Source of the DNA: Candidatus Dormiibacterota bacterium
GTDB taxonomy: Archaea > Thermoproteota > Bathyarchaeia > 40CM-2-53-6
Length of the DNA: 64,000 nucleotides
Assembly (NCBI GenBank): GCA_035637535.1
Contig: DASPWZ010000009.1
Span: 1,082-65,081, forward strand
Direction: 5' to 3'
The translations under genes were made by a program, and so were the position numbers. Below, in pieces: positions 1,285 through 27,648 of the stretch. The notes under the pieces were generated by a model. The model had not been told where the DNA came from, ran no database searches, and saw only the letters and a list, made by a program, of their open reading frames with translations. Every line of letters begins with the position of its first letter. Within the stretch, counting starts at the first letter, position 1.

Positions 1285-1359
1285 GCAAGCAGCTCAATCA
1301 TCAACCCGCCTATGTTAGATTGATCCGAGAGATGATTCCAGAGGTGCTAGCCGGGAAGA

Positions 1360-1566
1360 GCGCAGAATGAACCCTGATCTGGGATCTGGGAGGGGCATTT
1401 CATATGAAGCCCACTTCAAGCATGCATTGATACAGATGGAGACCGGTCGAAAAACGGCTGATTCGCTTGTTCGCGGGACAAACCAATAGTCTCGCCCAGA
1501 AACGTTTCAGACAGCGAATGAACCCTTTCCAGAATTTAGAAAAAAATATTTCCCGCGACACAAAAC
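1360..1566 (-). repeat. A-type unit (A1) of a conserved non-coding repeat / candidate structured RNA family
   Basis: Positions 1363-1440 match the reverse complement of 18937-19014 with only 2 mismatches in 78 nt (manual alignment). The rest aligns with substitutions and a 1-nt indel. It ends in the shared box aaaaaaatatttcccgcgacacaa (1541-1564). The strand given is the orientation shared with loci 2 and 3; the transcribed strand is unknown. Confidence 0.7.
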
Positions 1567-1650
1567 TCGACTCGGAGGGAATTAACAAACGGTAACCTTC
1601 TCTTCAGCTTCCGAGGAGGCAATTCGCAGACTGTACCATTTGAAACGTGA

Positions 1651-1865
1651 CAGGCGCAGAACAAGCCCTAATCAGGAATCAGGGAAGGGTGATTTTGATC
1701 TGCGAGATCTTCACGCTGAATCATGCGGATAACTCCCATGTGGCAGAACTGTTGACTGGCTCATTCTAAACCGTAAATCAGGAGACTCGCCCGGAACAGT
1801 TTCGACTGGGCGAGACCCCTCTGAAAAAAAGGGGGTCAACAATATGATTCTCGAGACGCAAGAGT
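1651..1865 (-). repeat. B-type unit (B1) of the same repeat family
   Basis: Aligns in reverse complement with 18560-18775. Shared blocks include atccgcatgat, the stem-loop GACCCC-N12-GGGGTC (1814-1837) and the motif ccctaatcaggaatcaggg (1666-1684). Its degenerate 5' box region runs into the 3' end of the GNAT ORF. Confidence 0.65.
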
Positions 1866-2396
1866 GTTCTTTGGACAATCTCTTATCTTGGCGGGAAAAC
1901 TATTCCTCAGACATTGTTTAGTCATATCTACCCCTTTTTTCTTGACTTGCAAGTATTCGGCTATGTCGAGTTCGAGGAAGACTTCTCCAATGTCTCCCAT
2001 AGTCTGCTTGAAATGATGCCTTTCGTACAACTGCTTTGCGCGCACATGTATCGTTGAGGTCTCCACACCAACTGCGCTCCTCGCGAGCGAGTCACTAATC
2101 GCCTTCTCAAGTAGAAGTGTTCCTATTCCTTTTCCTCTCTCTGCTTCCGAGACGTAGAAAGCGGATATGAACGCGTTCGGGCCTCCGTCGATGATATCTT
2201 CATGCAGGACGTAATGGATGAAACCGACGACTCTAGAGCTGGCTTTTGCAACAAGTAGCTCCTTTTTTCTGACTGCTCTTTGGACCGAGTTTAGCCGTCC
2301 TGAGATAGGTTTCCAGTCAAACCACTCAGATAGAAGATTGTCCACACCGGGGGCATCTGTCATCAACGCTCTCCTTACAACGAGGGTTCTGGACAA
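1836..2396 (-). CDS. GNAT family N-acetyltransferase
   Basis: 186-aa ORF with the acetyl-CoA binding motif RGKGIGTLLLEKAI and GNAT-like beta strands (VVGFIHYV, FISAFYV). The last ~20 codons overlap repeat unit B1. Confidence 0.75.
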   Translation of the reverse strand: MSRTLVVRRALMTDAPGVDNLLSEWFDWKPISGRLNSVQRAVRKKELLVAKASSRVVGFIHYVLHEDIIDGGPNAFISAFYVSEAERGKGIGTLLLEKAISDSLARSAVGVETSTIHVRAKQLYERHHFKQTMGDIGEVFLELDIAEYLQVKKKGVDMTKQCLRNSFPAKIRDCPKNTLASRESYC

Positions 2397-13684: not shown

Positions 13685-13714
13685 CCTAGAACGGGATATA
13701 GAATCATCCGGTTT

Positions 13715-14000
13715 CTGCGTCGCGAGACCGGCCTTCATACCTGTTTTTTCTGGATGTCCTATTGCTAGCTGGATCTTAACAGGGACCGAGCAAGAACCCC
13801 GTTCGCATCTTCTCAAGCGTCATGCGGATTTTATCATCGACTTGGACCCTCAGGCGTTTTCCAGGCGACTTCCTTGGCACCCTCAGGACCCTACTGGTCT
13901 CGCCGTGGCTGCTCCCGAGCTTGGGATGGAACATCCGCCTGGTAGCTCAGAATCTTCCGAAAATGGTCCTTGCTCGAGGACGGGAATCTTGAAATATCGA
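13715..14000 (+). repeat. possible degenerate B-type repeat unit (fourth locus)
   Basis: In order, it contains gcgtcgcgag (13722-13731), a T6 run about 20 nt later, tcccgagcttgggatggaacatccgc (compare tcccagatgggaattatccgc in B2) and a ctcagaatc...gggaatctt tail. The match is much weaker than at the other loci and the middle is expanded. Confidence 0.3.
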
Positions 14001-14033
14001 GTAGCACATAAAATAACACTAAGTGTGATACTA

Positions 14034-14228
14034 TTGGCCCTGGCGAGAGTCAGAAAAGTCGGCGGAAGCCTCGTAGTAACAATTCCCCGAGAGGTCGCCG
14101 AGGAAGAGGGAGTCAAGGCCGGAGAGCTTGTCAATGTAGAGATTCGTAAAACCCGGAAAAGCTTCTTCGGAGCGGCTAGGGGAATCGGACCCTTCACCGT
14201 CGAGGATGAGATGAAAGACCACGACTAG
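14034..14228 (+). CDS. vapB: AbrB/SpoVT-type antitoxin (VapB-like)
   Basis: In-frame TTG at 14034 gives MALARVRKVGGSLVVTIPREVAEEEGVKAGELV, the classic SpoVT/AbrB swapped-hairpin motif. It ends 7 nt before the PIN gene. Confidence 0.7.
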   Translation: MALARVRKVGGSLVVTIPREVAEEEGVKAGELVNVEIRKTRKSFFGAARGIGPFTVEDEMKDHD

Positions 14229-14235
14229 ATATGTC

Positions 14236-14607
14236 GTGGACGCTTATGCTTGGATAGAGTATCTCGACGGTAGCCCTAGAGGAGCCAGAGTCAGAGACCA
14301 TATCGAGAATCCAGCGAATACGATACTCACTTCAGCAGTCACGCTTGCGGAGCTTGTTAGCAGGTCTCTCAGAACGAAGCGGGACCCTAAAGTTGCGATC
14401 ACGGCAGTCGAGAGCAACTCAACCTTGCACACGATCACTCCCGGGCTAGCGACGCTAGCAGGGGAAGTGCACGCTGAAGAGAGGAAGCGCAAACAAGACT
14501 TTGGCCTAGCAGACGCCTTCGTCCTAGCCACCGCTAGGAGCAGATCCTCTAAGGTTCTGACAGGAGATCCTCACTTCAAAGACGTCCCCGAAGCAGTCAT
14601 GATCTGA
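14236..14607 (+). CDS. vapC: PIN-domain ribonuclease toxin VapC
   Basis: 123-aa ORF with a GTG start. Acidic PIN residues sit at the expected spacing (VDAYAWIEY, LAELVS, LADAFVLATA, TGDPHF). Confidence 0.75.
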   Translation: MDAYAWIEYLDGSPRGARVRDHIENPANTILTSAVTLAELVSRSLRTKRDPKVAITAVESNSTLHTITPGLATLAGEVHAEERKRKQDFGLADAFVLATARSRSSKVLTGDPHFKDVPEAVMI

Positions 14608-15559: not shown

Positions 15560-15730
15560 ATGCAAAGCGTCGACTGCAAGGTCTTCTGCCGAACCTGCCA
15601 GGAACCCACATACCGCGAACTCCGATACCGATCCGACTTCCAGTTCGTAGGCCGACTACTAGTATGCCAGAAGTGTGGCGAGACAATCTTCGAACCAGTA
15701 GGGTCCGGGACGGTGTGTCAAGACTGTTGA
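15560..15730 (+). CDS. small zinc-ribbon protein (56 aa; below the ORF-track cutoff)
   Basis: ATG at 15560, TGA at 15728-15730. Peptide MQSVDCKVFCRTCQEPTYRELRYRSDFQFVGRLLVCQKCGETIFEPVGSGTVCQDC has CxxxCxxC, CxxC and CxxC motifs. Its 3' end and downstream flank are duplicated at 19031-19178. Confidence 0.5.
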   Translation: MQSVDCKVFCRTCQEPTYRELRYRSDFQFVGRLLVCQKCGETIFEPVGSGTVCQDC

Positions 15731-15826
15731 CAAGCCTACAAGCAATGTGGCTACTAGACTTACGCGAACGTCCCGACGAGACCCGTAATGAGCGCAAGCC
15801 GGACGGTCGGGTCAAGAAAGTCTCTA
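15685..15826 (+). repeat. direct repeat copy 1 (3' end of the zinc-ribbon gene plus its downstream flank)
   Basis: Aligns with 19031-19178. This includes a 26-nt exact block gcctacaagcaatgtggctactagac (15734-15759 = 19084-19109). Confidence 0.75.
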
Positions 15827-16280: not shown

Positions 16281-16506
16281 AAGCCGTCTTCGAGAAAGAG
16301 AATAGCGTCAGACCAATACAAGCTTGCTTGTTTGCAGAAGTGTTTTGATCTGTGAACACCCCGTTCTAAACCGTGGCCTTAAGGTCCTCCGCCTCGTACA
16401 TCAAGTCCATGCAGCTACCGGTAGAGCAGAGACTGAATCAGAATCTACATTCTGGTCGCCGAATTATTCGAGACGAAGAGAACTGGGACGAGAGGAGGAT
16501 ACGGCT

Positions 16507-18477
16507 GTGAAGGTTGGCTCCAAAACCCGGACTGTCTTTGGGCTCACACTGGGAATCATCGCCGGACTCGCGCTAATACTCCTTCCCGGAATAATGGTCA
16601 TGTACACTCACCTACCCAATCCCAACGCTACTGACCAGCATGTCATGGTCCCCTTCACATCCTATCAGGAGTTGCACAGCTTCATTTTCACAAAGAGCTG
16701 CAACAGCACCGAAGTTCGCAACCTCTACAATCCCACTCCCGCTCCGGTAATCCTGAACACGAACACGAACGGTCTCAACCCTGGCGGGTTCACCGGCACT
16801 GTTTCCACCATTGCCACAAGTGGAACCTCCACGGTTTCAATCTCAACGAGCGCTACTCCCAGCCACTCTGAGACAAACGCTCAGGTGGCCGGCGTCGACG
16901 AGCTTGACACCGTAAAGAACGACGGCAGCTACATCTACACGGTAACGAATAACACTGTCGGGGTCGTCCTTGCTTACCCTATCACAGACGCAAAATTGCT
17001 TGCCCATGTATCGGTGAACGGTTCTCTCCAGGGGATTTTCGTCGACGGCAATAGGCTAGTTGTTGTCAGTCAGCAGTACCAGCAGTACCCTTCACCATTT
17101 ACCGCTACCTTGCAACCTGCGGGTTCTTCTATCGCTGTCTATCCAATATTCCTCAACTATCCCCAGACCACTTCTCTATCGATCTTCGACATTTCTAACC
17201 ATGCCGGTCCAGTGCTGACAACTACTCTCGTAGTAAATGGAACTCTCGCCGGGGCCCGGCTAATTGGAGACTACGCTTACCTGGTAGCGACACAACCAGT
17301 CTACTGCACAGGCCCGATTCTGCTTCCGGTCAATGTGGTAGACGGGCGGGCGTTGACAATGGGGATTGCATCAGTCTATCATTCTGATATCGCTGATGTG
17401 GCTCATAGCTTCACTACGGTTGTTGGTATCAACGTAACCCAAGACAACCCGACTCCAGCGGCTAAGATCTTCCTCATCGGCACGAGCAGTAACATCTACG
17501 TCTCACTTCACCAGATCTATCTCACTCAGCCAATCTGGAGTCAGGTCGAACAGACTGCTGTGCACCGGATCAGTATTGATGGTGCAAGCATTAGCTATCA
17601 GGCGACGGGTACTGTGTCGGGACATGTTCTGAACCAGTTCTCCATGGACGAGTACAATGGCAACTTCCGCATTGCCACAACCGGCTACAGCTTCAACCAA
17701 GTAGCCTCGACGGGAGGCGTATCGTCTTCCTACGTGCAGCAAACCAATCTGTATGTCTTGGACAGCGGCCTGCATATCATCGGAAAGCTCGAAGGACTGT
17801 CGCCTGGTGAAATGTTCTACGCGGCCAGGTTCATGGGGGACAGAGCCTACCTAGTCACTTTTCAGAGAATGGACCCGTTGTTCGTCATCGGTCTGCAAGA
17901 CCCCACCCAGCCAAAGGTCTTGGGCCAGCTCAACATCCCTGGAGTCTCTGACTATCTGCAGCCCTACGATGAGACTCACTTGATTGGTTTCGGAAAATCT
18001 TCGACGAACGTTACCTGGGAGAACGCTGCACTGTTCCAGGGTCTCAAGCTCAGCCTCTTCGATGTCACGGATCCGAGTAACCCTATTGATACGAGCAACT
18101 TTTTGGTCGGAGATCGGGGTAGTGACTCTCCAGCTCTGACGGATCACAAGTCGGTGCTTTTCGACAGGTCTCTCAACCTGCTGGTAATACCTCTGACGAT
18201 TGCGCAGGCTCAACCGAACGCAACTTGCACATGGTGCTACAATCCTCCTGTCTGGCAGGGAGCCTACGTGTTCAACATCACCGTTCAAGACGGAATCGTC
18301 CTCCGCGGCAGAATAACACACCTCGCCACAGGCCAGCTTCCCAGCTGGTATAACAGCAGCTTCTTCGTCACTCGCGCTCTCTACATCGGCAGCGTACTCT
18401 ACACAATCAGCAACAACATGGTCAAGATGAACAGTCTCTCCGATCTCACAGAACTCAACTCTGTAAGCCTAGCCTAA
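16507..18477 (+). CDS. secreted beta-propeller domain protein (COG4880 / Beta_propel family)
   Basis: The long ORF is open from 16324. In-frame GTG at 16507 gives a signal-anchor MKVGSKTRTVFGLTLGIIAGLALILL. The C-terminal signature is ARFMGDRAYLVTFQRMDPLFVIGLQDPTQPKVLGQLNIPGVSDYLQPYDETHLIGFG. Confidence 0.8.
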   Translation: MKVGSKTRTVFGLTLGIIAGLALILLPGIMVMYTHLPNPNATDQHVMVPFTSYQELHSFIFTKSCNSTEVRNLYNPTPAPVILNTNTNGLNPGGFTGTVSTIATSGTSTVSISTSATPSHSETNAQVAGVDELDTVKNDGSYIYTVTNNTVGVVLAYPITDAKLLAHVSVNGSLQGIFVDGNRLVVVSQQYQQYPSPFTATLQPAGSSIAVYPIFLNYPQTTSLSIFDISNHAGPVLTTTLVVNGTLAGARLIGDYAYLVATQPVYCTGPILLPVNVVDGRALTMGIASVYHSDIADVAHSFTTVVGINVTQDNPTPAAKIFLIGTSSNIYVSLHQIYLTQPIWSQVEQTAVHRISIDGASISYQATGTVSGHVLNQFSMDEYNGNFRIATTGYSFNQVASTGGVSSSYVQQTNLYVLDSGLHIIGKLEGLSPGEMFYAARFMGDRAYLVTFQRMDPLFVIGLQDPTQPKVLGQLNIPGVSDYLQPYDETHLIGFGKSSTNVTWENAALFQGLKLSLFDVTDPSNPIDTSNFLVGDRGSDSPALTDHKSVLFDRSLNLLVIPLTIAQAQPNATCTWCYNPPVWQGAYVFNITVQDGIVLRGRITHLATGQLPSWYNSSFFVTRALYIGSVLYTISNNMVKMNSLSDLTELNSVSLA

Positions 18478-18504
18478 GAACTTCGCCGGTCCCGACTACC
18501 CCGT

Positions 18505-18775
18505 CTTGTGTCGCTGGAAATATTTTTTGTAAATCCTAGGCAGAAGAGGAATCTCCCAAAGATAACTCACGCGTCGCGAGGAAAATATTGCTGGCCCCCT
18601 TTTTTCTAGGGGGCTCTCGCCAGCTGAAACCGGTCTGGGCAAATCTTGCGATTCAGGCGCAGAATAGAACGGTCTACCGTTTTCCCAGATGGGAATTATC
18701 CGCATGATCAAGCGTGAATATCTCAGTGATCAAAAATCGCCTGCCCCGATTCCGGATCAGGGCTGATTCCAAGCG
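18505..18775 (+). repeat. B-type unit (B2) of the conserved non-coding repeat / candidate structured RNA family
   Basis: Starts with the box cttgtgtcgctggaaatattttttgtaaatcctagg. It contains ctcacgcgtcgcgagg, the stem-loop GCCCCC-N9-GGGGGC (18594-18614), ggcgcagaat, atccgcatgat and the terminal hairpin ccccgattccggatcaggg (18744-18762). Confidence 0.7.
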
Positions 18776-18810
18776 ATTTTCATGGATGGATGTTTCTCAA
18801 AAGAACTGTT

Positions 18811-19017
18811 TTGTGTCGCGGGAAATATTTTTTTTGTAAATTCCAGGAACGGTCCAGTCGCTGGCTGAACCGTTTCTGGGGGAGATTGCTGGTTTGTCCC
18901 GCACAACAGGCGAGTCAGCGATCTTTCGACCAGTATCCATCTGTATCAACGCATGCTTGAAGTGGGCTTCATATGAAAAGCCCCTCCCAGATCCCAGATC
19001 AGGGTTCATTCTGAACG
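18811..19017 (+). repeat. A-type unit (A2) of the same family
   Basis: Starts with a near-identical box ttgtgtcgcgggaaatattttttttgtaaattccagg. It ends with gggcttcatatgaaaagccc and the hairpin cccagatcccagatcaggg (18986-19004). It is the reverse-complement match of 1360-1566. Confidence 0.7.
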
Positions 19018-19030
19018 ATTCTGACGACTA

Positions 19031-19178
19031 AATCATCGAACCAGTTAGGTCCGGGACAGCGTGCAAAGACTGGAACTTGACATGCCTACAAGCAATGTGG
19101 CTACTAGACATACGAGAAGGTCCCGACGAGAGCAACCATAGGCGCAGCCGAGACGATCAAGTGAAGAAACTCTCTGCT
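19031..19178 (+). repeat. direct repeat copy 2 (fragment of the zinc-ribbon gene 3' end plus flank)
   Basis: Matches 15685-15826 but the reading frame is broken, so only the tail IIEPVRSGTACKD is recognisable. Confidence 0.7.
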
Positions 19179-19597
19179 AAACCGAGCATCATACACAAGC
19201 ATCGGACCGTTAGATCCTCGAACATGAAGACCCGCTGATTTCGGGAGCAGACTAACTTCCGTCATACGAACAATGATAGTCGTACAGCCGTGAGACAACG
19301 AATGCCCTACACAGCATCGATGCACGCGAAGCTCCTGGAGAAGCTGGACCTCGCCAAGCGCCCGTTCACAGATCAGAGCGGGCAGAGCCGGAAGTCCGGG
19401 TTCCGCCCAGTGTTATGACTTTCGAAATTATTTTCGCTCACCTCGCTTGAGGCCTATAGATTGCCGATGATTACTGAAGCGAGATGAGCGAGAGTTCATC
19501 AGTGGTACGACCTACTCCCTCGCCGGCGGCCACCTCAGATACTGACAGACCCATCGTAGGCCTTTAGTAACTTTCACATCAGAGACAGGTGTAGACA

Positions 19598-19969
19598 ATG
19601 CGAGGTAGTATTGCCCCAAAGTGGAACGAGCTCGACCGGATCGCCAAACTCTCCTCCATGACAGGAATTGTTCTTGGAACCTGGGGCTTCCCTCTGTTTG
19701 CGCTGGTTCTTGCGCAGGCTCAAACCGGAATCTTTGGGGAGGGAGAATATGGAATAGGTGAAATGTTTCTTGCCCTCGTTCCGGCTTCAATCCTGCTGGT
19801 CGCGAGTGGGCTGAACTTGTGGTTTTTCGCCTCGACCAGAAGGAGAAGGTTGAGCATTACAATCCTAGTCTTGCTCGGGGCATTCGTTCCTATATTCATG
19901 ACTGTTGGGTATGTCATCCATCTTCGATATCCGTGTTGGCCCCACCATCCCATCGACTATTGTCCTTAG
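19598..19969 (+). CDS. small membrane protein, unknown function
   Basis: 123-aa ORF with three hydrophobic helices. Confidence 0.5.
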   Translation: MRGSIAPKWNELDRIAKLSSMTGIVLGTWGFPLFALVLAQAQTGIFGEGEYGIGEMFLALVPASILLVASGLNLWFFASTRRRRLSITILVLLGAFVPIFMTVGYVIHLRYPCWPHHPIDYCP

Positions 19970-20154
19970 AAGTTGGGTTTTGGTATTTGCCGAATCATCT
20001 TGATCTCTGGTGGTTGTGAACCTGTTATCAAGGAAAAGGGATTGGCCGAGAACCTAATTCAGATGTCTAACTATATGACGCCAAGGCTTTCTACCTTTAT
20101 TATGAGAGAAGGTAGATTCGTGTTATGTACAACATCAAATCTCCCCACAAGTAA

Positions 20155-20472
20155 TTGCAAGCAATTAAGATAACTCCAACCGTCCGCGACAGAATTCTAC
20201 TGCATTTGGCAAGATATTCCCTATATGAGAAAGACTACAACGTGCCTTTCGACGTTACGCAGCAAGGAATTGCTGAAAATGTATCTATCAGACAGAGTCA
20301 TGTGCCCCAATATGTTCGACCTATGATCAAGGATGGTCTAGTACTTGAAAAGTCGTCCGTTGCGAAAGGAGGCAGGCGGCATAGAAAAGTATACTTCCTG
20401 ACTTCCCAAGGCCGGACAGCTCATGCTTGGCTCCACGATAATAATCCTGAAGAGAGCCAAGCCCGATTCTAA
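20155..20472 (+). CDS. winged-helix transcriptional regulator
   Basis: 105-aa ORF with a TTG start. FDVTQQGIAENVSIRQSHVPQYVRPMIKDGLVLEK...RKVYFLTSQG is an HTH plus wing pattern. Confidence 0.55.
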   Translation: MQAIKITPTVRDRILLHLARYSLYEKDYNVPFDVTQQGIAENVSIRQSHVPQYVRPMIKDGLVLEKSSVAKGGRRHRKVYFLTSQGRTAHAWLHDNNPEESQARF

Positions 20473-20576
20473 CGACATCGGACCCTACAACAAACCCTCG
20501 AAGCTGTTGCGGGTTCCCTAGAGAAAGCAACCGTCTTAAATTTCTCAGAGTCGGTAATAGTCATTTGTAACCGTAT

Positions 20577-20598
20577 ATCCGTAGGTATACCTACGGAT
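20577..20598. promoter_or_regulatory. perfect 22-bp palindrome, candidate operator
   Basis: ATCCGTAGGTATACCTACGGAT equals its own reverse complement. It lies between the wHTH gene and the large surface-protein gene. Confidence 0.5.
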
Positions 20599-20697
20599 TA
20601 TCTGAGGTCACGTTATAACGCATTCTTGCGTTCTATGCTTGACCGTAATGAAGGCCTTCATGAGGCGACATGGGATTCTCGGTGTTGAGAATTCAGA

Positions 20698-23600
20698 ATG
20701 AAAAAACTCAGCTTATTGATTCTCGTTTTGACCTTGTCTATCCTCGGCTCGGCAGTATTATTCTCGGCTCACAACCTCATTGCTCGGAACATTTCCGAGC
20801 AGGGGAAAACGACCGAAGCCGCTCGCCAAGTCAGTTCTCAGACAATCGGTGTGAGCCCGCTTACCTTGACTCCTCAAACGGGCAGTTCTCCACAAGAAGC
20901 GACCTCTTTGATGGCTGCGGGCCCGCCAGGCACGACGCCAACGCATCACGGCATCTCCCCCCAAGATACCGTCTGCTGCCCGATTGCGGGAGGAACCGCT
21001 CAACCATGGAGCGCGGGTTATATGGATCAAAGCGCGACCCTAGCTTCCGAAGTCAGAGTTCAGGTATCATTCCTGAACACCGTTCAAAATTCTATCCCAA
21101 CGGGTAACTATATTCGAGTAGGAATGATGGCTCAATCACAATCAAATGGTGCCAGTAACTGCATTCAGACCTGCGGCACTCTTGATTGGGCAAACTTTGC
21201 CTGGGTCCAAATTTCCAATGCTGGAAATCCCACGATCGTATCAGAGGTAGACACGTCACCTGGATATTTCGAGAGTTCGATCAACGTGTTCACTTCGAAC
21301 TGGAATTGTTATTGCTACACTGCTTCCGACTTCGCCACCTTAACGATGCGGTGGAACAATGGAGTCCTAGAATGGCTGGCAGCAATTAATGGAGTCGACC
21401 AAGGGGTCATCGCCACTTACACTCCTTACAGCTATCAGCAACAAGTATTTCACGTAGGAGCCGAAAGCTTCTCACTATGCGCTAACCTGTTTCCTTGTAC
21501 GGTGAAGTATTTCCAGTTCGGAATATTCGGACAATCGCCCGTGTCCAACCCCGGATTCCAAGTGTTCATCCAGTCCCCGCAGTACATGCCAAACGGTAGC
21601 AGCACTTGGAACGATGTGACAAAGTCTACTTCTACCGACGGATCAGACGCTCTGGTTGACAAACAGTACGCGGTAGGGGGAGAGGCCTACGTTCAGGCGC
21701 AGGCAAACTATTGCAAGAATGATGGAACGAAGCCATTCGGCCAGATCTTGTTTACGGAGTCGCCTAATTTTCTTCAAAGCGGAGTCTTGCTATGGGATTC
21801 CGGCTGTACAAAGGCCAACTTCTCATTCAGCGCTAGTCCCTCGTCCATCAACATCAATCCTGGCCAAACGCTTTGCTGCACACTGTCAGCGTCCCTAGGC
21901 ACTCTTAACAGCTACACTGGCGGAATCACTGTCTCGATGACAGGCCTTCCTAATTGCGTGACAAGCTCAATACCTAATCCCACGCTTCTAACTTCCGAAC
22001 CGCCCATATCGGGCTCTGGAGCTGGTTTCAGTATTAGCCTGTCTGCCTCGACCAGCTGTCCATCAGCGTCAACCTTTACCGGAACCCTGACCGCGAATGA
22101 CGCTATAATTAGCCACACAGCAAGCTTCACGCTCCAGATTTCAGACTTCGCCATCTCAGCCAGCCCGTCCACTGTCTCTCTGACACTCGCAGGATCTTCG
22201 GCTTCTTCTACTGTCACCGTGGCCAGTAATGCAGGTTTCTCATCCGCAGTGTCCCTCGCTGCTTCTGCTTCTCCCAGCGGCCCGGTCGTATCCGTCTGGC
22301 CGACAAGTGTCACCCCGTCTCTAGGTGGTTCATCCATCTCGACACTTGACATTAGCGCTGGAGGTGCCGCCCCTGGTACCTACGCAGTCACAGTAACGGG
22401 CACCAGCGGCTCGCTGGTTCACTCGACTACAGTAACTGTGACGGTAGCCGGTGATTTCAGTGTCGCAGCGAGTCCGACCACGCTGACTCTTCCGGCCGGC
22501 TCCTCAGGAGCCTCCACAATCACGCTGGCGAGCCTAAACGGCTTCTCGGGTACAATATCACTGGCATCATCAGCCAACGTAACGATCAGTGCCGTGGACA
22601 TTGATGATGGTAATTACCGGGCCTTCGGCCTAACTATAGACCAGGCTCTGTACACTCCCGATTTCTGGAACCAGCAGCCAGGCTCTATAATCGGGGATGC
22701 CAGTAGCATCTTTACCTACTCCCATACTTTCCCGCTCCCCACAGGCTCACATTTCATAGAGTTCGGTGTCAGCGCCTGGGTGGGCCACTGGCACGCCAAG
22801 ATCTGGGTCAACGGCGTGCTCATGGCGGATGTCGATACAAACGTCGTCACCCACGTGCACGTACCATTCCAGGTCACGGGAGTCTCCGTCTCACCATCAG
22901 TGACTAATGGGCCGACAGGCTCGTTGAGCGCTACGAGCACTACTCTGTCGGCGGCGGGATCCTCGGCTATCACGCTCAGTATCGCTACAACGTCGTCAAC
23001 GCCAGCGCAGAACTATGTCTTCACTCTGATCGCTAGTAGCGGTGGGGTCTTCCACGCATCAACTGTAACAGTCAAGGTTCTGGATTTCAGCCTCACAACG
23101 AATCCATCCAGCCAGTCTCTTATTCTGGCAGGCTCGTCGACCACGTCCACTGTCACCGTTGCTAGCCTCAACGGCTTCTCGGGGACCGTGTCCCTCACCG
23201 CTTCTACCTCTTCTTCTGGACTGGTGGTTTCTCTCTGGCCAAACAGCCTAACTATTTCGAGCGGTGGCTCGGCGACTTCAACCCTTTCCATTAGTGCCGG
23301 AGGGGCTACGCCGAGCACCTACACTGTAACCGTCGGCGGGACGGGTGGCGGGCTTAGCCATTCAGCCACGGTGACCGTTAGTGTTGGTGGCGACTTTGGA
23401 ATTTCAGCCAGCCCGACTAGTCTGAGCATTAGCCATGGGAGCTCAGGTACTTCCACGCTTACTCTGACGAGCCTGAATGGCTTCGCTGGAACGAGCTTCG
23501 CTGGGACGATAACGCTCCCAAGTCAGGCTTCGATCTCGATTACGGCAACTAGCACAGACGATCATTACCAGAGGTCCTTTGGGCTACTGTTTGATCAGAC

Positions 23601-24036
23601 GCTGAATCCTGATTTCTGGAATTCTCAACCGGGCTCGGTGATAGGAGTGAGCTTCAGTCCGTTTACCTTCTCCCACACCTACTCTCTCTCCCGCGGAAGC
23701 CACTTCCTAGAGTTCGGAGTCAGTGCTTTCGTTGGCCACTGGCACGTGCAGATTACGGTCAATGGCGTGGTAGTGGCTAGTGTTGATACCGACGTGAGCC
23801 ACCATGTTCACTCCTCGTTCAGCATTGGAGGAACCTCCGTCTCACCCTTGGTCAGTAATGGTCCAACTGTCTCGTTGAGCTCAAACAGCGTTACGCTCTC
23901 CTCCGGAGGCTCAGGCACAATTACGATGACGATATCAACAACACACAAGACTCCCACGGGCAACTACACGGTTACGGCGATAGCGACCAGCGGCGGACTT
24001 TCCCATTCAATAACGATTACTATCACTGTTACATAG
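20698..24036 (+). CDS. large secreted surface protein with Ig-like repeats and an internal ~950-bp module duplication
   Basis: 1112-aa ORF with an N-terminal signal/anchor (MKKLSLLILVLTLSILGSAVLF). Ser/Thr-rich Ig-like repeats recur (ASPSTVSLTLAGSSASSTVTVAS...). Residues ~482-794 and ~795-1112 are paralogous modules. Confidence 0.8.
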   Translation: MKKLSLLILVLTLSILGSAVLFSAHNLIARNISEQGKTTEAARQVSSQTIGVSPLTLTPQTGSSPQEATSLMAAGPPGTTPTHHGISPQDTVCCPIAGGTAQPWSAGYMDQSATLASEVRVQVSFLNTVQNSIPTGNYIRVGMMAQSQSNGASNCIQTCGTLDWANFAWVQISNAGNPTIVSEVDTSPGYFESSINVFTSNWNCYCYTASDFATLTMRWNNGVLEWLAAINGVDQGVIATYTPYSYQQQVFHVGAESFSLCANLFPCTVKYFQFGIFGQSPVSNPGFQVFIQSPQYMPNGSSTWNDVTKSTSTDGSDALVDKQYAVGGEAYVQAQANYCKNDGTKPFGQILFTESPNFLQSGVLLWDSGCTKANFSFSASPSSININPGQTLCCTLSASLGTLNSYTGGITVSMTGLPNCVTSSIPNPTLLTSEPPISGSGAGFSISLSASTSCPSASTFTGTLTANDAIISHTASFTLQISDFAISASPSTVSLTLAGSSASSTVTVASNAGFSSAVSLAASASPSGPVVSVWPTSVTPSLGGSSISTLDISAGGAAPGTYAVTVTGTSGSLVHSTTVTVTVAGDFSVAASPTTLTLPAGSSGASTITLASLNGFSGTISLASSANVTISAVDIDDGNYRAFGLTIDQALYTPDFWNQQPGSIIGDASSIFTYSHTFPLPTGSHFIEFGVSAWVGHWHAKIWVNGVLMADVDTNVVTHVHVPFQVTGVSVSPSVTNGPTGSLSATSTTLSAAGSSAITLSIATTSSTPAQNYVFTLIASSGGVFHASTVTVKVLDFSLTTNPSSQSLILAGSSTTSTVTVASLNGFSGTVSLTASTSSSGLVVSLWPNSLTISSGGSATSTLSISAGGATPSTYTVTVGGTGGGLSHSATVTVSVGGDFGISASPTSLSISHGSSGTSTLTLTSLNGFAGTSFAGTITLPSQASISITATSTDDHYQRSFGLLFDQTLNPDFWNSQPGSVIGVSFSPFTFSHTYSLSRGSHFLEFGVSAFVGHWHVQITVNGVVVASVDTDVSHHVHSSFSIGGTSVSPLVSNGPTVSLSSNSVTLSSGGSGTITMTISTTHKTPTGNYTVTAIATSGGLSHSITITITVT

Positions 24037-24266
24037 GTCGATTCGCAGCAACGAACCCCTGCTTCTTTCCTTCAGCTTTTCTTCATCCCAGCAGATAAGC
24101 AGCGGTCTTCTCCAGCAAGACAAGGGACCGGCTATACGGTGAAATTATTAGAAAGCCTAGGCAAAGAGTAGTCTGAGGGATCTGAGCTTTGCGAATAGTC
24201 TCTCGGTCAACCTAGGATCAGTGTGTCAGTTAGGCCGGGTCCGAAGAAAGCCAGTCTCCTCGCTTT

Positions 24267-24743
24267 GTGAAGAAACCAGTCTCAGGCGCAGTGAAGTTCG
24301 GAAGGCTGAACCTGGAAGGCGACCGTCAAGCCGACCTGACAGTTCACGGTGGAGTAGACAAGGCCGTCTACGCCGATCCATCTGAACACTACCCGTACTG
24401 GGTCGCGAAATATCCGAATATGGAAGTCCCGTGGGGAACATTCGGGGAAAACTTGACCACAGAAGGGTTACTTGAGAGCGAAGCTCACGTGGGCGACCAA
24501 CTCGGCGTCGGGTCGGCAGAATTTGCGGTGACCCAGCCTCGCTTTCCCTGTTACAAGTTAGGTCTGAGATTCGGAACCCAAGCCATCCTCAAAACTTTTC
24601 TCGACTTTGAAAGATCCGGATACTATCTCAAGGTCCTGCGAGAAGGAAAAGTCAAAGCCGACGACCCGATAAAAACTATCCAAGCAAACGAGAACTCCCT
24701 GACCATCACCTCGATGGTCCCGATGGTTAGGAGAAGCGGCTGA
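24267..24743 (+). CDS. MOSC domain protein
   Basis: 158-aa ORF with a GTG start. LEGDRQADLTVHGGVDKAVYA and VTQPRFPCYKL are MOSC signatures. The N-terminus looks short. Confidence 0.75.
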   Translation: MKKPVSGAVKFGRLNLEGDRQADLTVHGGVDKAVYADPSEHYPYWVAKYPNMEVPWGTFGENLTTEGLLESEAHVGDQLGVGSAEFAVTQPRFPCYKLGLRFGTQAILKTFLDFERSGYYLKVLREGKVKADDPIKTIQANENSLTITSMVPMVRRSG

Positions 24744-24934
24744 GACTACGTCCAGTCACACTCTTTCCCTTCTCGCGCAGCCTTGGCGCCTCGGAACGAT
24801 CGATGGGTAATGAGGGTATTGGTGACGGGCTTCGGTGGATTATCGTTGGACGTTCGCGGCTGTTAGCTGTGTCGGATGAACCTCAAGCCGGGCAGAACCG
24901 AACCTTTCGAGAATTCTTTGATTCTCCTTTTCGC

Positions 24935-27067
24935 CTATGCGATAGCTATGGTGGTGCTACCGGAACTGCTGAGATGATCCGTATCTCCGGTATACGTTGC
25001 GGTGATTTGTTGAATGGTTGCTCTGCCTGTGCTTGGCGTATAGGTGACGGTGCAAGTTGCTGTCGGTCCGTTGCCGGAGATGATGCAACTGGTTGGGCTG
25101 AAGGTCCCGGTTCCGCTACTGCTCCAGCTAGCGAATCCTGTCGGTGTTATCGGTGTTCCAGGTGATGTGTCTGTCACACTGGCCTGGCATGTTGTTGAAT
25201 GTTTAGGCCGGAGGGCGCTGGGCGAGCAACTGACGCTGGTCGACGAGGCACGTTTTGTTACTTGCAGGCTGGTTGAGCCTGAGCTTCCCTGATGAGTCGA
25301 GTCGCCGCCATAGGTTCCGATTACGGTCTGTGTCCCTTCCGTGCCTGGACTCGGCGTATAGCTCAGAGAGCAACTGCTGGTCGAGGAGCTGGTGGGGCCT
25401 AGTGTGCAGGTTGGCGAGGGGGCGAATGAACCGGGGCTACTGCTGGAAAAAGATACACTGCCAGTTGGTGAGGTCGGGGTGGCTGAGGTGTCTGTGACGG
25501 TCGCTGAGCATTGAGCGGCTTGGTTTACGGCTATCGTGGCTGGGGTACAGTTGATGGTGGAGCTTGTGCTGGACAATGTCGTTCCACCACTCTTGTTAAT
25601 GGTGGCAGTGAAAGCGTCTTGGTCAACACAGCCGTACGGCGGAATATTTGTGTCGCATGCATTCCTGTTGTCGCTCCATATTGGCTGAGCTGTGGCGGGC
25701 GATGCTGCTATCTGGATATAGTCTCCCATGAAAGCACAGAATGTGCAAGGAGGGTCGGTTCTCAGAACAATGTTGGGGTTGAAGCTAGTCGAGGTCACTC
25801 GTAGGTTGGGCGAGAAGGTGCTGCCGGCATCGAGCGATTGGGCATAGAAAACGTCAACGGCAGTCATCGACGTGCCAACGTTGAGACGGCTGTCGTACCA
25901 GGCTACACTGATGATACCCCCGGAGGCAGCTATTGTTGGAAAGAAGTGCTGTCCAGTCATGACATCATTGACCATCAATGGAGCAATCCATGTGATGCCG
26001 CCGTCAATCGAACGGGTGAAGAAAACGTTGGAGTTTCCAGTTCGGAAATCATCCCATACAAGATAGACTCCATTCTGATCAGCGGCCATTTGAGGAATAG
26101 TGAATGCCCGGAAGTTTCCTCCGGGAAGAGGCGAAGGTATCAGAAAAGCAGGATTAACAGCCCTCGTCGTCCCTGCGACCGTTGTCCCACCGTTCGTTAT
26201 CTTCGTCACTTCAATATAGCCTAGAAAATTCTCGGTCACAGCATCAAACGCGTCAGCTGAGACGTAGACATTGCCGGACGAATCGATCGCCATTCCTGCC
26301 AACTCTCCGGTTTCATCGGCTGGAGTGTAGAACGGCGCCGACCAAGTATTACCCCCATCAGTCGAGCGGGTGAAGAGAGTTCCAAAATAGGACGTGGCGG
26401 TCAGGTTAGCGTCGTAGGCGACGTACACGTTTCCGTCGAAAGGTCCACCAGTCGTATCCGCTACGATCCAAGGTTTGTCTGGAAAGATGCCCGCAGAGAT
26501 GAGGTTCGCGTTGGAGTACGTGGCTCCGTCATTCGTGAACTTCGCCACGAAAAGACCGGTGTTGATGAAAGGGCTGTTGACCGGGATGCTGAGAACGAGG
26601 CCTACGTAGTACAGATTTCCGTTCCGGTCGAATGTGAGCACAGGGTCGGATGTCGCATTCCAAGCATGTAGGGGTGAGGCGAGTCCTTCAGGTGAAGTGT
26701 CGCCCGGGAAGCCTGGGAGGAGAATATTCGTCCAGGTTTGGCCGCCGTCTGTTGACCGGTAGAATCCATGCCAACGATGCTCTCCAACAGATACGAGTCT
26801 CAGATCCTGGGCGCCGGCAACGATAATGCTCGGGTTGCGAGGGTCTATGGCGATGGTCGGTTCAACCTGCTGACGGTCGGGAGGCGCATCGCCAACGATT
26901 CCCACGTTGGATCCCGTCGATAACTCCGGAAGAATAGTTGTATTCGGCGTCGAATTAGTCAGTGCTACTCTCTGCAGAGCAGAGCTCGACATCGCTGCTG
27001 GATCAGTTGTTAGGAACAGACCAACCATGATCAAGGCGACAACGATAATCATCGGCCTGCTTGACAA
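24935..27067 (-). CDS. BNR/Asp-box repeat (sialidase-fold) secreted protein with C-terminal Ig-like repeats
   Basis: 710-aa ORF with a signal anchor. Asp-box motifs are STDGGQTW, STDGGNTW, SIDGGITW and SLDAGSTF. The C-terminal region is Ser/Thr-rich and repetitive. Confidence 0.8.
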   Translation of the reverse strand: MSSRPMIIVVALIMVGLFLTTDPAAMSSSALQRVALTNSTPNTTILPELSTGSNVGIVGDAPPDRQQVEPTIAIDPRNPSIIVAGAQDLRLVSVGEHRWHGFYRSTDGGQTWTNILLPGFPGDTSPEGLASPLHAWNATSDPVLTFDRNGNLYYVGLVLSIPVNSPFINTGLFVAKFTNDGATYSNANLISAGIFPDKPWIVADTTGGPFDGNVYVAYDANLTATSYFGTLFTRSTDGGNTWSAPFYTPADETGELAGMAIDSSGNVYVSADAFDAVTENFLGYIEVTKITNGGTTVAGTTRAVNPAFLIPSPLPGGNFRAFTIPQMAADQNGVYLVWDDFRTGNSNVFFTRSIDGGITWIAPLMVNDVMTGQHFFPTIAASGGIISVAWYDSRLNVGTSMTAVDVFYAQSLDAGSTFSPNLRVTSTSFNPNIVLRTDPPCTFCAFMGDYIQIAASPATAQPIWSDNRNACDTNIPPYGCVDQDAFTATINKSGGTTLSSTSSTINCTPATIAVNQAAQCSATVTDTSATPTSPTGSVSFSSSSPGSFAPSPTCTLGPTSSSTSSCSLSYTPSPGTEGTQTVIGTYGGDSTHQGSSGSTSLQVTKRASSTSVSCSPSALRPKHSTTCQASVTDTSPGTPITPTGFASWSSSGTGTFSPTSCIISGNGPTATCTVTYTPSTGRATIQQITATYTGDTDHLSSSGSTTIAIA

Positions 27068-27274
27068 GAATGATCGAAGGAAAATCGTCTCGAATCTTGT
27101 ATAAAAACGTACATGACTCTAAAAAGAATAATCGTTCGAGCTGAAGCCGTTCAAGAATATCCAGATATACCAAACTATCTACTCTTCTCATCACGACTGC
27201 TTCCAACAGGTCTAAGCATACGAAACGTGTCTGAGTCGGCCTGGTCACGACTCCAACAAAACATAAACGAAAGA

Positions 27275-27442
27275 ACAGGATCCACTCGCTAGCTGAAACG
27301 CCTCTCGGCGAGAATATCGGTTTGTTGCGCAGAACAGCCGAATCATCATTTTTCCAATAGCGGACTGATGGGATCATGCAAGAGTGAACTGCGCATCATA
27401 TGGAACCCTTCTCCCAGATTACGGATCTAGGCTTATTCTGGG
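27275..27442 (+). repeat. A-type unit (A3) of the repeat family
   Basis: Aligns with 18850-19012. Shared blocks are cgctagctgaaacg / cgctggctgaaccg, ggtttgt, catgc, tcatatggaaccc and the hairpin cccagattacggatctagg. The upstream box is degenerate. Confidence 0.55.
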
Positions 27443-27600
27443 CACTTCCATGAGAGGGATCTCCCCAAGGAGCACTCGCGCGTCGCGAGGAATTTGTGAC
27501 CTCCCTCCCCACTTTTTTCCGGAGGGGTCCTGCCAGATGGAACGTTTCCATGGGACGATTCGAGTTCCGGGCGCAGAATTCACTTGGATGCCTGTTCTCC
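27443..27600 (+). repeat. B-type unit (B3) of the repeat family
   Basis: Aligns with 18548-18672. Shared blocks are gggatctcccc, ctcgcgcgtcgcgagg, the stem CCCTCC (27503-27508) / GGAGGG (27521-27526) around a T6 loop, gccagatggaac and gggcgcagaat. The 3' part is truncated or divergent. Confidence 0.6.
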
Positions 27601-27648
27601 GATAGACTAAACCGGGCCGGCCACAAAGAGCACTGATGGGAGGCGGCC

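Follow-up and report, generated by a model that had tools for sequence, protein, structure and literature searches.

An intergenic region in a 64-kb stretch of Bathyarchaeia DNA (contig DASPWZ010000009.1; the whole stretch is called the window below) carries a solo box, a B unit and then an A unit (18498-19027), all located after a beta-propeller gene. As judged from sequence comparison, these units belong to a roughly 230-nt non-coding repeat family that is real, large, undescribed and confined to soil Bathyarchaeia. Our comparisons demonstrate that the family exists, is non-coding, modular in anatomy and vertically inherited, and is under purifying selection in its motif blocks only. By kind, it belongs with the prokaryotic multi-copy intergenic repeat families or with families of paralogous small RNAs (sRNAs), and it is unusual in having an archaeal host, a promoter-like module, no inverted repeats, and a conserved sequence without a conserved structure. 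We tentatively favor a reading, to which we give somewhat less than an even chance, in which each unit is a small transcription unit (an sRNA gene) with its own promoter, whose RNA acts via short conserved motifs and not via its fold; transcription of the units, its strand and start site, and their molecular function are what we infer.

Unit coordinates in the window (Table 1) rest on an nhmmer profile search with all filters off, which returned four full units, an A unit without a box (A3), a shortened B unit (B3), the solo box and a weak partial match. The original prediction, an earlier reading of the window's sequence, had described two tandem units with near-identical opening boxes, and such boxes were found at 18505-18540 and 18811-18847. 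It had also described a common 19-nt hairpin-forming ending, CCC-N-GAT-Y-triloop-GATC-N-GGG and then yt.attc, and each unit does end in CCC-N-GAT-Y...GAT-Y-N-GGG with yT.aTTC after it. The window has five occurrences of the degenerate terminal motif CCCNGATYNCNGATYWRGGYTNRTTC (1365, 1659, 18744, 18986 and 27413), compared to 0.00 expected in window shuffles. Related units that had been placed near 1360-1900 (inverted) and 27275-27600 were recovered at 1350-1876 on the minus strand and at 27277-27604. A further unit, suggested with reservation at 13715-14000, held up only in part: a box and a body start are present at 13713-13784, but the rest of the body is unrelated. This element is a distant relative that has only the 5' module in common with the family, with an orthologue in L114 (L-numbers denote related contigs or loci carrying units). 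By self-BLAST, A1 and A2 are 88% identical over 206 nt, B1 and B2 74% over 211 nt, and A1 and A3 72% over 176 nt; A and B units are homologous across the whole body of about 170 nt. The orthologue of the shortened B3 in L003 (774-1019) is full length.

A scan for the terminal motif in one genome for each bacterial and archaeal species gave matches on 29 contigs. Twenty-seven of these are from soil 'Candidatus Bathyarchaeota' metagenome-assembled genomes (MAGs): BA_2, BA_7, BA_12, BA_23, BA_24, 13_1_40CM_2_52_13, 13_2_20CM_2_53_6 and SMAG_U11553. One match lies by chance inside a Gemmatimonadota gene, and one is on L018 (DASWCA010000247.1), a 2285-nt contig labelled Acidobacteriaceae SMAG_U2696. 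The unit region of L018 and its flanks are identical to about 27260-27500 of the window (A3, B3) except for one base in the 3' flank, so that L018 almost certainly comes from Bathyarchaeia and was placed in a bacterial MAG by mistake. The same motif matched at least 119 soil contigs in a metagenome scan, and every genuine copy in the sequences scanned came from soil Bathyarchaeota MAGs or soil metagenomes. When a family profile built from 28 units was run on 151 sequences (1.09 Mb), it found at least 236 copies, 201 of them full length and 189 of these unique. The unique units fall into about 50 clusters at 30% distance, and the largest clusters mix units from several genomes. The family provides a roughly 230-nt lineage-specific marker: from 596 Gb of genome sequence, the terminal motif alone picked out hardly anything but these genomes. 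Soil Bathyarchaeia, which are abundant and uncultured, have a non-coding genome about which next to nothing is known.

Database searches agreed with the original prediction, which had seen no fit of the motifs to RNase P, SRP, C/D-box or H/ACA RNAs, group I/II introns or a riboswitch. Rfam release 15 gave no gathering-score match in the whole window or in 13 related loci, and no match in L009 (250-900); at the E-value threshold, 18400-19300 produced chance-level hits only (E = 4.5-9.6; 12-16 bits vs. gathering scores of 35-50). No unit matches were found in IMG/VR viral contigs or in plasmid and phage collections, and we rejected a virus or plasmid origin for this reason. Full-text literature searches turned up no description of this family and nothing on Bathyarchaeota non-coding RNAs or repeats. 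Resemblances noted by eye only, to a K-turn, C/D box, hammerhead core, tRNA T-arm, ORB origin element and integron attC, were dropped because defining positions did not fit or because Rfam and ARAGORN were negative.

Read from its 5' end, a unit begins with (CC)AAAGAGC-nn-TTTT-GYGTCGCGRG (block 1), which includes the box, the best-conserved 5' element. A subfamily-specific A/T-rich stretch follows as block 2; A units have AAATATTTTTTTTGTAAAT or AATTTTTTTATTTCTAAAT there, the major B subfamilies AGCAACTACTTTTGAGATTTTT and window-type B units AAAAATTGTTGGCCCCCTTTTTT. Then come a G-run (block 3), CTCGCCAG-y-TGAA-r-C (block 4), GGGCGAG (block 5), GCGCAGAAT (block 6), GTC (block 7), GTTTTC (block 8), AGCGTGAA (block 9), AAATCGCC (block 10) and, at the 3' end, a nearly invariant 30-nt block, CCCNGATTCCGGATCAGGGCTTGTTCTG (block 11). 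The terminal motif can be read either as an imperfect hairpin with a non-covarying N-A mismatch or as a tandem direct repeat, CCNGATY-CCNGATY. One unit is present in 79 loci, two in 61, and three or more in 10. The second unit of a pair is usually of type A (x-then-A in 35 of about 70 pairs and A-then-B in 3, as called with a crude motif classifier). Most pairs have a conserved 70-85-nt linker between the units, which holds CTGCGCCTGTC...GAACAGTCTGCG and a strongly conserved ATTACyCTTTGTTAATTCCCTCC; in the window, locus 1 has this linker and locus 2 lacks it, with a gap of about 10 nt. We take A and B for two ancient paralogous types, in most cases ordered as B-linker-A.

No reading frame was open across the units in a six-frame search for stop-free stretches. 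At any column, no more than 21% (plus strand) or 30% (minus strand) of units are covered by ATG-started open reading frames (ORFs) with 20 codons or more, and the commonest GTG/TTG 'starts' are the GTG and TTG within the box, which lie in two different frames. Variation showed no 3-nt periodicity (power at period 3 of 0.08 vs. a null mean of 0.15). That small ORFs are not conserved, as had been proposed, is borne out by the lack of a shared frame or start codon among aligned units. These results also weigh against the idea that the units are decayed or very small protein genes (micro-ORFs, type I toxins or Zn-ribbon gene remnants). Such an origin could be suggested by a 56-aa CxxC ORF at 15560-15730, whose 3' end and downstream region are duplicated right after A2, and by a local GRLLVC match between this Zn-ribbon ORF and one A2 reading frame. 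However, DNA similarity between the Zn-ribbon gene and the A units was not significant: local alignment against shuffles gave z = 2.6 for A2 only and z ≤0.6 for the other units, and we rejected an origin from that gene. The protein-gene explanation is largely excluded, and we consider it extremely improbable.

Units occupy syntenic positions across MAGs (L013 and L015; L009 and L026; L006 and L007). Those of L029 and L020 both lie beside aRF1 and have an unusual CTAGCC variant, and those of the window, L008 and L003 all follow the beta-propeller gene. At aRF1, the L029/L020 units are 71% identical at a synonymous difference of 0.38; at the beta-propeller gene, the window and L008 units are 74% identical at a synonymous difference of 0.33, and the non-unit sequence that separates stop codon and unit does not align. 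We determined mismatch rates in 41 long alignments of related contigs, each with a full unit and at least 250 nt of flank per side. Among pairs of 78-88% identity, the rate was 0.282 at third codon positions, 0.290 at variable unit columns, 0.207 at intermediate columns and 0.123 at family-conserved columns; the corresponding values among pairs of 88-97% identity were 0.147, 0.142, 0.091 and 0.069. The orthologue mismatch rate correlated with family-level information content at -0.47. Even in fixed orthologues, therefore, purifying selection holds the short conserved blocks to about 0.45 of the neutral rate, and the segments between them drift neutrally at the third-codon rate. Selection on motif blocks with neutral spacers argues against decaying selfish relics, and the neutrality of the variable segments argues against a role for them as guides or structural helices. 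A guide-RNA role was also disfavored by antisense 11-14-mer unit matches elsewhere in the window, which were at chance level.

The original prediction had offered a structured RNA or a regulatory repeat family; the conserved, non-coding character of the units stands, as does their lack of an Rfam match, and they may be a regulatory repeat family, but the structured RNA was not supported. We ran RNAalifold on 28 and on 136 units, on both strands. With 28 units, only 17 pairs were predicted, with a covariation term of -0.68 kcal/mol. Across the 189 unique units, subfamily signal dominated the mutual information with average product correction (MI/APC), and no helix with real covariation emerged when we scanned for stacked complementary columns. 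For each candidate helix (the box hairpin, CTCGCC/GGCGAG, CAGY-UGAA-RCUG and the terminal hairpin), the canonical pairs observed in these units equalled those expected under independent columns. In a formal pairing test, the RNAalifold consensus of 136 units at <88% identity, which contains a long-range pairing of GCGCAGAA with UUCUGCGC, was compared to column-shuffled controls. Paired cells made up 85.4% vs. 84.9% in shuffles, 17 pairs vs. 16.4 were changed on both sides (a value reached by 253 of 500 shuffles), and the covariation score was 0.197 vs. 0.194 (reached by 122 of 500). Since pairing equals that of the shuffled controls, the self-complementarity lies in the conserved sequence and is not maintained through compensation. 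Folding stability was likewise unremarkable: the minimum free energy (MFE) z-score of 50 cluster representatives against dinucleotide shuffles averaged -0.45 (plus strand) and -0.52 (minus strand), with 8% below -2. A hairpin before the internal T-run occurs in some subfamilies only (mean z = -0.42, median z = +0.22).

Several specific claims for a fold can be judged from these data. Compensatory changes had been proposed to keep the structure, and a lack of covariation in a larger alignment had been named in advance as what would count against it; with 136 units, covariation was at the shuffle level. The terminal hairpin had been said to keep its pairing through sequence changes, which the 189-unit comparison does not support. 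G-U wobbles had been taken to favor the plus strand slightly, but one pair of CTCGCC/GGCGAG has 47 U-G combinations (plus strand only) and its neighbor has 62 C-A combinations (minus strand only), which cancel each other as evidence for a strand. The B stem around the T-loop fared better: GCCCCC/GGGGGC, GACCCC/GGGGTC and CCCTCC/GGAGGG are all present, and the changes are compensatory in window-type B subfamilies, but the largest B subfamilies lack the C-run 5' arm. A novel structured RNA with helices kept by compensatory changes can thus point to the three B-stem copies in the window and to a self-complementary consensus (85% of cells paired vs. 35-50% with the partners slid). Against it stand pairing and covariation no higher than in controls in both alignments, the MFE values on either strand, the lack of the B stem in the largest subfamilies, a mid-body hairpin that is not general, and variable segments that change at the neutral rate among orthologues. 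It is largely excluded, and we regard it as very unlikely; the apparent compensatory changes among three copies vanish once 136 copies are compared.

The units lie among housekeeping and accessory genes, including those for an Obg-like GTPase, AspRS/AsnRS (class II), CysRS (class I), aRF1, SHMT, an M20 peptidase, an MFS transporter, a radical SAM protein, a GNAT acetyltransferase, and TfoX_N-like, beta-propeller, MOSC and winged helix-turn-helix proteins. A Pfam scan of 20 flanking proteins found no transposase, TnpA, TnpB, integrase, recombinase or reverse transcriptase, and we rejected an association with TnpB, insertion sequences or recombinases. Over all loci, in counts inflated by redundant loci, the upstream neighbor was co-oriented with the unit in 80 cases (median gap 55 nt) and divergent in 43 (110 nt), and the downstream neighbor was convergent in 88 (92 nt) and co-oriented in 54 (136.5 nt). 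Units tend to face gene 3' ends on both sides. They cannot serve downstream genes as 5' leaders. Some units are antisense between two genes (L021, L027 and L029), which shows that they are not simply 3' untranslated regions either and are independent of their neighbors.

Of the 166 matches to the box, G[CT]GTC[GA]CG[AG]G, in the 151 sequences, 136 are at unit starts, and the others include a short relative and the 13717-type element. What comes after the box thus varies: it may be an A body, a B body, a short body with three GGTAAC repeats, or the body of the 13717-type element, which is present in the window, L114, L069 and L090. The short relative takes the A position of pairs (Table 1) and consists of a 5' module, TTAATTCCCTC...GYGTCGCGAG, followed by CAAGTGCAATTGACATTTC and the body GGTAAC-GGGTCT-GGTAAC-CGTGAAT-GGTAAC; it had no Rfam match. 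This use of one box before several bodies, together with the arrangement in L008, where the A-box leads into a protein gene (see below), makes the box and A/T-rich stretch look like a promoter and regulator module that has come to be combined with various downstream sequences. The A/T-rich stretch after the box sits at a distance from the conserved body that would suit a candidate archaeal promoter. TATA-like words (such as AAGCTTTTAAG, CTTTTATATA and AAGCTTATAT) occur in the upstream regions of window genes. The tetranucleotides TTAA (0.24 of expectation) and TATA (0.37) show strong depletion in the window and genome-wide, so that the A/T-rich words in units are unusual for this genome. A T5 run is found within 70 nt downstream in 24% of units, vs. 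A5 in 7%.

In the sRNA-gene reading, the box GYGTCGCGRG and the A/T-rich stretch would form an archaeal promoter of the B recognition element (BRE)/TATA type and might also hold a site bound by a shared regulator. From the A/T-rich stretch it would be about 25-30 nt downstream to the transcription start, near the G-run and CTCGCC. The RNA, about 165 nt long, would end at the near-invariant imperfect GATC hairpin (CCCNGATY-NCN-GATYWRGG) and CUUGUUCUG; next to these, many copies have a U-run or a linker that bears one. This RNA would act through a few short conserved motifs, by protein binding or short base-pairing, with no conserved global fold. We base this reading on the motif-only purifying selection, the vertical inheritance, the lack of coding potential, the 5' module common to units and a protein gene, the independence from neighboring genes, and the fixed polarity (B then A, with T-runs on one strand). 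If transcribed, the units would be among the first sRNA families described for the class Bathyarchaeia, and the candidate promoter and regulator box GYGTCGCGRG, present before several sequences, could define a regulon. A bolder version would make the units a new archaeal class of regulatory RNA, found in soil Bathyarchaeia alone and driven by a dedicated promoter and regulator box common to them, multi-copy, conserved in sequence but unstructured, and protein-sequestering or motif-presenting (repeated GAUY/CCNGAUY), as a counterpart to CsrB/RsmZ-type decoys, together with a GYGTCGCGRG-box regulon; we think this improbable.

Several observations weigh against an sRNA gene. There are several TATA candidates (TTTTGTGT in the box, the subfamily A/T stretch, the conserved T-run and TTTGTTAATT in the linker), the A/T-rich stretch varies between subfamilies, and a lineage-specific promoter model from upstream hexamers, which was underpowered, yielded no TATA-like words. 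About half of the units lack a T4 run within 70 nt downstream, and conserved T4-T5 runs (GTTTTC in mid-body) lie inside the proposed RNA. The orientation bias relative to neighbors (80:43 and 88:54) is modest, even with redundant loci inflating it. Finally, motif-only conservation at about half the neutral rate fits protein binding at the DNA level equally well, and column conservation in the 189-unit alignment (columns 15-225) has its strongest period at 10.5 nt, a weak hint of binding on one face of the DNA that is not globally significant (power 1.86 vs. 1.94 for the 99% quantile at that period, and a 95% threshold of 3.16 across all periods tested).

The main rival is a module that acts as double-stranded DNA, in which the palindromic box CTCGCG-T-CGCGAG, the tandem CCNGATY-CCNGATY and other blocks would form an array of protein-binding sites, either a landing pad for a regulator or nucleoid protein or a terminator/promoter insulator at gene 3' ends, with any RNA being incidental. 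Constraint on short motif blocks alone, with neutral spacers about them, would be expected of such an array, as would motifs of which several are palindromic or tandem, as sites for dimeric DNA-binding proteins typically are; conserved blocks lie roughly 20-22 bp from each other, neither RNA covariation nor excess folding stability was seen, and the units favor gene 3' ends. A pure binding array does not, however, need the orientation-dependent features (fixed B-A order, one-strand T-runs and neighbor bias), its 10.5-nt period fails correction for the periods tested, and no candidate binding protein is consistently encoded near the examined units. We consider a DNA-level module possible, if on balance unlikely.

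The all-against-all comparison of the 151 sequences revealed rearrangements at unit borders. Relatives differ in having tandem or single units: two units in L009, L026 and L093 face one in L098, and two in L100, L122 and L128 face one in L084 and in L130, with the tandem-to-single breakpoints falling in the conserved terminal block. The box that follows the beta-propeller gene adjoins the A3 body directly in L003 (592-618), L114 and L109; relative to these, the window has an extra 8.76 kb (18543-27303), which separates box 1 from the A3 body and has CAG at each junction. This segment contains B2, A2, the Zn-ribbon remnant, and genes for proteins of 123 and 105 aa, secreted proteins of 1112 and 710 aa, and a MOSC protein. 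In L008 and L101, the 5' region of the 123-aa gene (orthologous to window 19598-19969) comes straight after an A-box and the first ~12 nt of the body, and the ATG of this gene lies about 95 nt after the A-box in L008; the window and L119 instead have a 666-bp segment, made up of the A body and about 500 nt, between the A-box and this gene. L052 (9147-10608) carries a 1461-bp cassette for a 381-aa serine/threonine (S/T)-rich surface protein immediately 3' of the unit end. The units are thus recombination-prone landmarks at breakpoints in a variable region rich in surface-protein genes. Single-gene indels of S/T-rich secreted or anchored proteins, of 1112 aa (window 19967-24122) and 381 aa (L052), separate related contigs; unlike the L052 indel, that of the 1112-aa gene has no unit motif at its borders.

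Such breakpoints (the tandem-to-single changes, the 8.76-kb segment, and the 666-bp and 1461-bp indels) would also be expected of a selfish or neutral intergenic repeat (REP/BIME-, ERIC-, BOX- or MITE-like) that has spread by transposition in trans or by recombination, that is tolerated chiefly at gene 3' ends, and whose ends are kept for a transposase or recombinase. The many intergenic copies per genome, biased to regions facing gene 3' ends, and the modular, tandem nature of the units point the same way, as does the subterminal imperfect hairpin, which we take to resemble the end hairpins of IS200/IS605 and REP elements. However, when the first 60 nt of 48 units were compared to their last 75 nt in reverse complement, no terminal inverted repeats appeared (mean z = 0.02), and no transposase, TnpB or recombinase lies beside any examined unit, the neighbors being housekeeping genes; on these grounds we rejected a classical MITE (a miniature transposable element with inverted repeats). 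The all-against-all comparison, which sampled unit-bearing loci only, showed tandem-to-single variants and larger rearrangements and no clean whole-unit gain or loss between relatives. The largest clusters span several genomes, indicating old diversification and not recent bursts, fixed orthologues keep a degree of purifying selection that is unexpected for decaying relics, and viral, phage and plasmid collections lack matches. Taken together, we judge a selfish or neutral repeat to be rather unlikely.

Multi-copy sRNA families (bacterial Qrr and PrrF, and archaeal intergenic sRNAs) consist of several diverged paralogues per genome, each with a conserved promoter module, a pattern that the units would match. 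The units resemble Qrr/PrrF-type families in their conserved 3' hairpin and short motifs, variable remainder and tandem duplicates, but their copy number is much higher (at least 8 loci in one incomplete MAG), no conserved fold was detected apart from the terminal hairpin, and they have no link to any known RNA chaperone or target. With IS200/IS605 ends, palindrome-associated transposable elements (PATEs) and TnpB omega-RNA, they have in common a ~200-nt non-coding body and a conserved imperfect subterminal hairpin followed by unrelated flank. Unlike these, they have no TnpA or TnpB beside them and carry one hairpin per unit and not one at each end; unlike omega-RNA, they have no covarying structured scaffold, and the adjacent variable sequence evolves neutrally. 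REP/BIME elements, which are associated with a RAYT transposase, are 20-40-nt GC-rich palindromes as whole units, in contrast to the several conserved blocks of a ~230-nt unit. Among ERIC/IRU, pneumococcal BOX and Neisseria Correia/NEMIS repeats, some carry promoters or are co-transcribed. Like them, as described in part in PMC3184786, our units are 100-250-bp multi-copy, intergenic, non-coding and built of modular blocks, often near gene 3' ends; unlike them, they have an archaeal host, no terminal inverted repeats, no excess folding stability or covariation, and a fixed B-then-A order with a conserved linker, and there is no sequence similarity. MITEs are, according to PMC11602168 and PMC3184786, non-autonomous, mainly intergenic and dependent on external transposases. 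The units are likewise small, non-coding, multi-copy and intergenic, but they differ from MITEs in that no target-site duplication or presence/absence polymorphism was seen (among unit-bearing loci), no related transposase adjoins them, terminal inverted repeats are lacking, and the motif blocks of fixed copies are under purifying selection.

Table 1. Positions of units, boxes and related elements. Coordinates refer to the window unless a contig is named.
Feature	Location	Strand	Description
Unit A1	1350-1575	-	Paralogue of A2; nhmmer E = 2e-49
Unit B1	1633-1876	-	Paralogue of B2; nhmmer E = 5e-54; has the 3' extension and linker that normally ties B to A
Distant relative (13713 element)	13713-13784	+	Box TTCTGCGTCGCGAGAC, T-run, CTAGCTGGA start, then unrelated body; nhmmer E = 0.05
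Solo promoter-like box	18498-18544	+	CTTGTGTCGCTGGAAATATTTTTTGTAAATCCTAGG; just past the beta-propeller stop codon; nhmmer E = 3e-4, model positions 11-59
Unit B2	18552-18786	+	nhmmer score 182, E = 2e-55, match 18552-18783; body begins CTCGCCAGCTGAAAC
B2 box	18571-18580	+	GCGTCGCGAG
B2 hairpin	about 18594-18616	+	GGCCCCC-T6-GGGGGC
B2 terminal motif	18744-18769	+	
Unit A2	18796-19027	+	nhmmer E = 4e-48, match 18796-19026; body begins GTCGCTGGCTGAAC
A2 box	18813-18822	+	GTGTCGCGGG; A/T-rich TATA-like stretch next
A2 terminal motif	18986-19011	+	
Unit A3	27277-27454	+	Body and terminal motif, no box; nhmmer match 27277-27450, model positions 57-231, E = 2e-36
Unit B3	27462-27604	+	3' half lost; model positions 3-139, E = 4e-17
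Short GGTAAC relative	L041 ~1965-2110		
Short GGTAAC relative	L045 ~1325-1470		
Short GGTAAC relative	L090 ~4045-3900	-	
Short GGTAAC relative	L120 ~1960-2110		
Short GGTAAC relative	L144 ~1230-1085	-	

The beta-propeller gene upstream of the solo box corresponds to the ORF at 16324-18477, whose residues from 16516 on match Pfam PF09826 (E = 3e-139). Just downstream of the 13713 element, 14020-14607 holds what by eye looks like an AbrB/SpoVT-like small protein followed by a PIN-like ORF, a putative VapBC-type toxin-antitoxin pair. The 56-aa ORF described above has a CxxC...CxxC Zn-ribbon pattern (region 15560-15825). Its 3' end and ~100 nt of downstream sequence recur at 19031-19175 with 80% identity, and this copy lacks the 5' part of the ORF and looks like a gene remnant. 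The 1112-aa gene contains internal direct repeats (22453-23880), in which 22711-22929 matches 23662-23880 at about 70% identity, indicating repeated domains. We also considered GATC as a methylation clue and dropped it as uninformative, since it is not avoided in the genome and is merely 2-fold enriched in units; among whole-window tetranucleotides, GTAC is depleted (0.53 of expectation), and GATC (1.47) and TCGA (1.61) are enriched.

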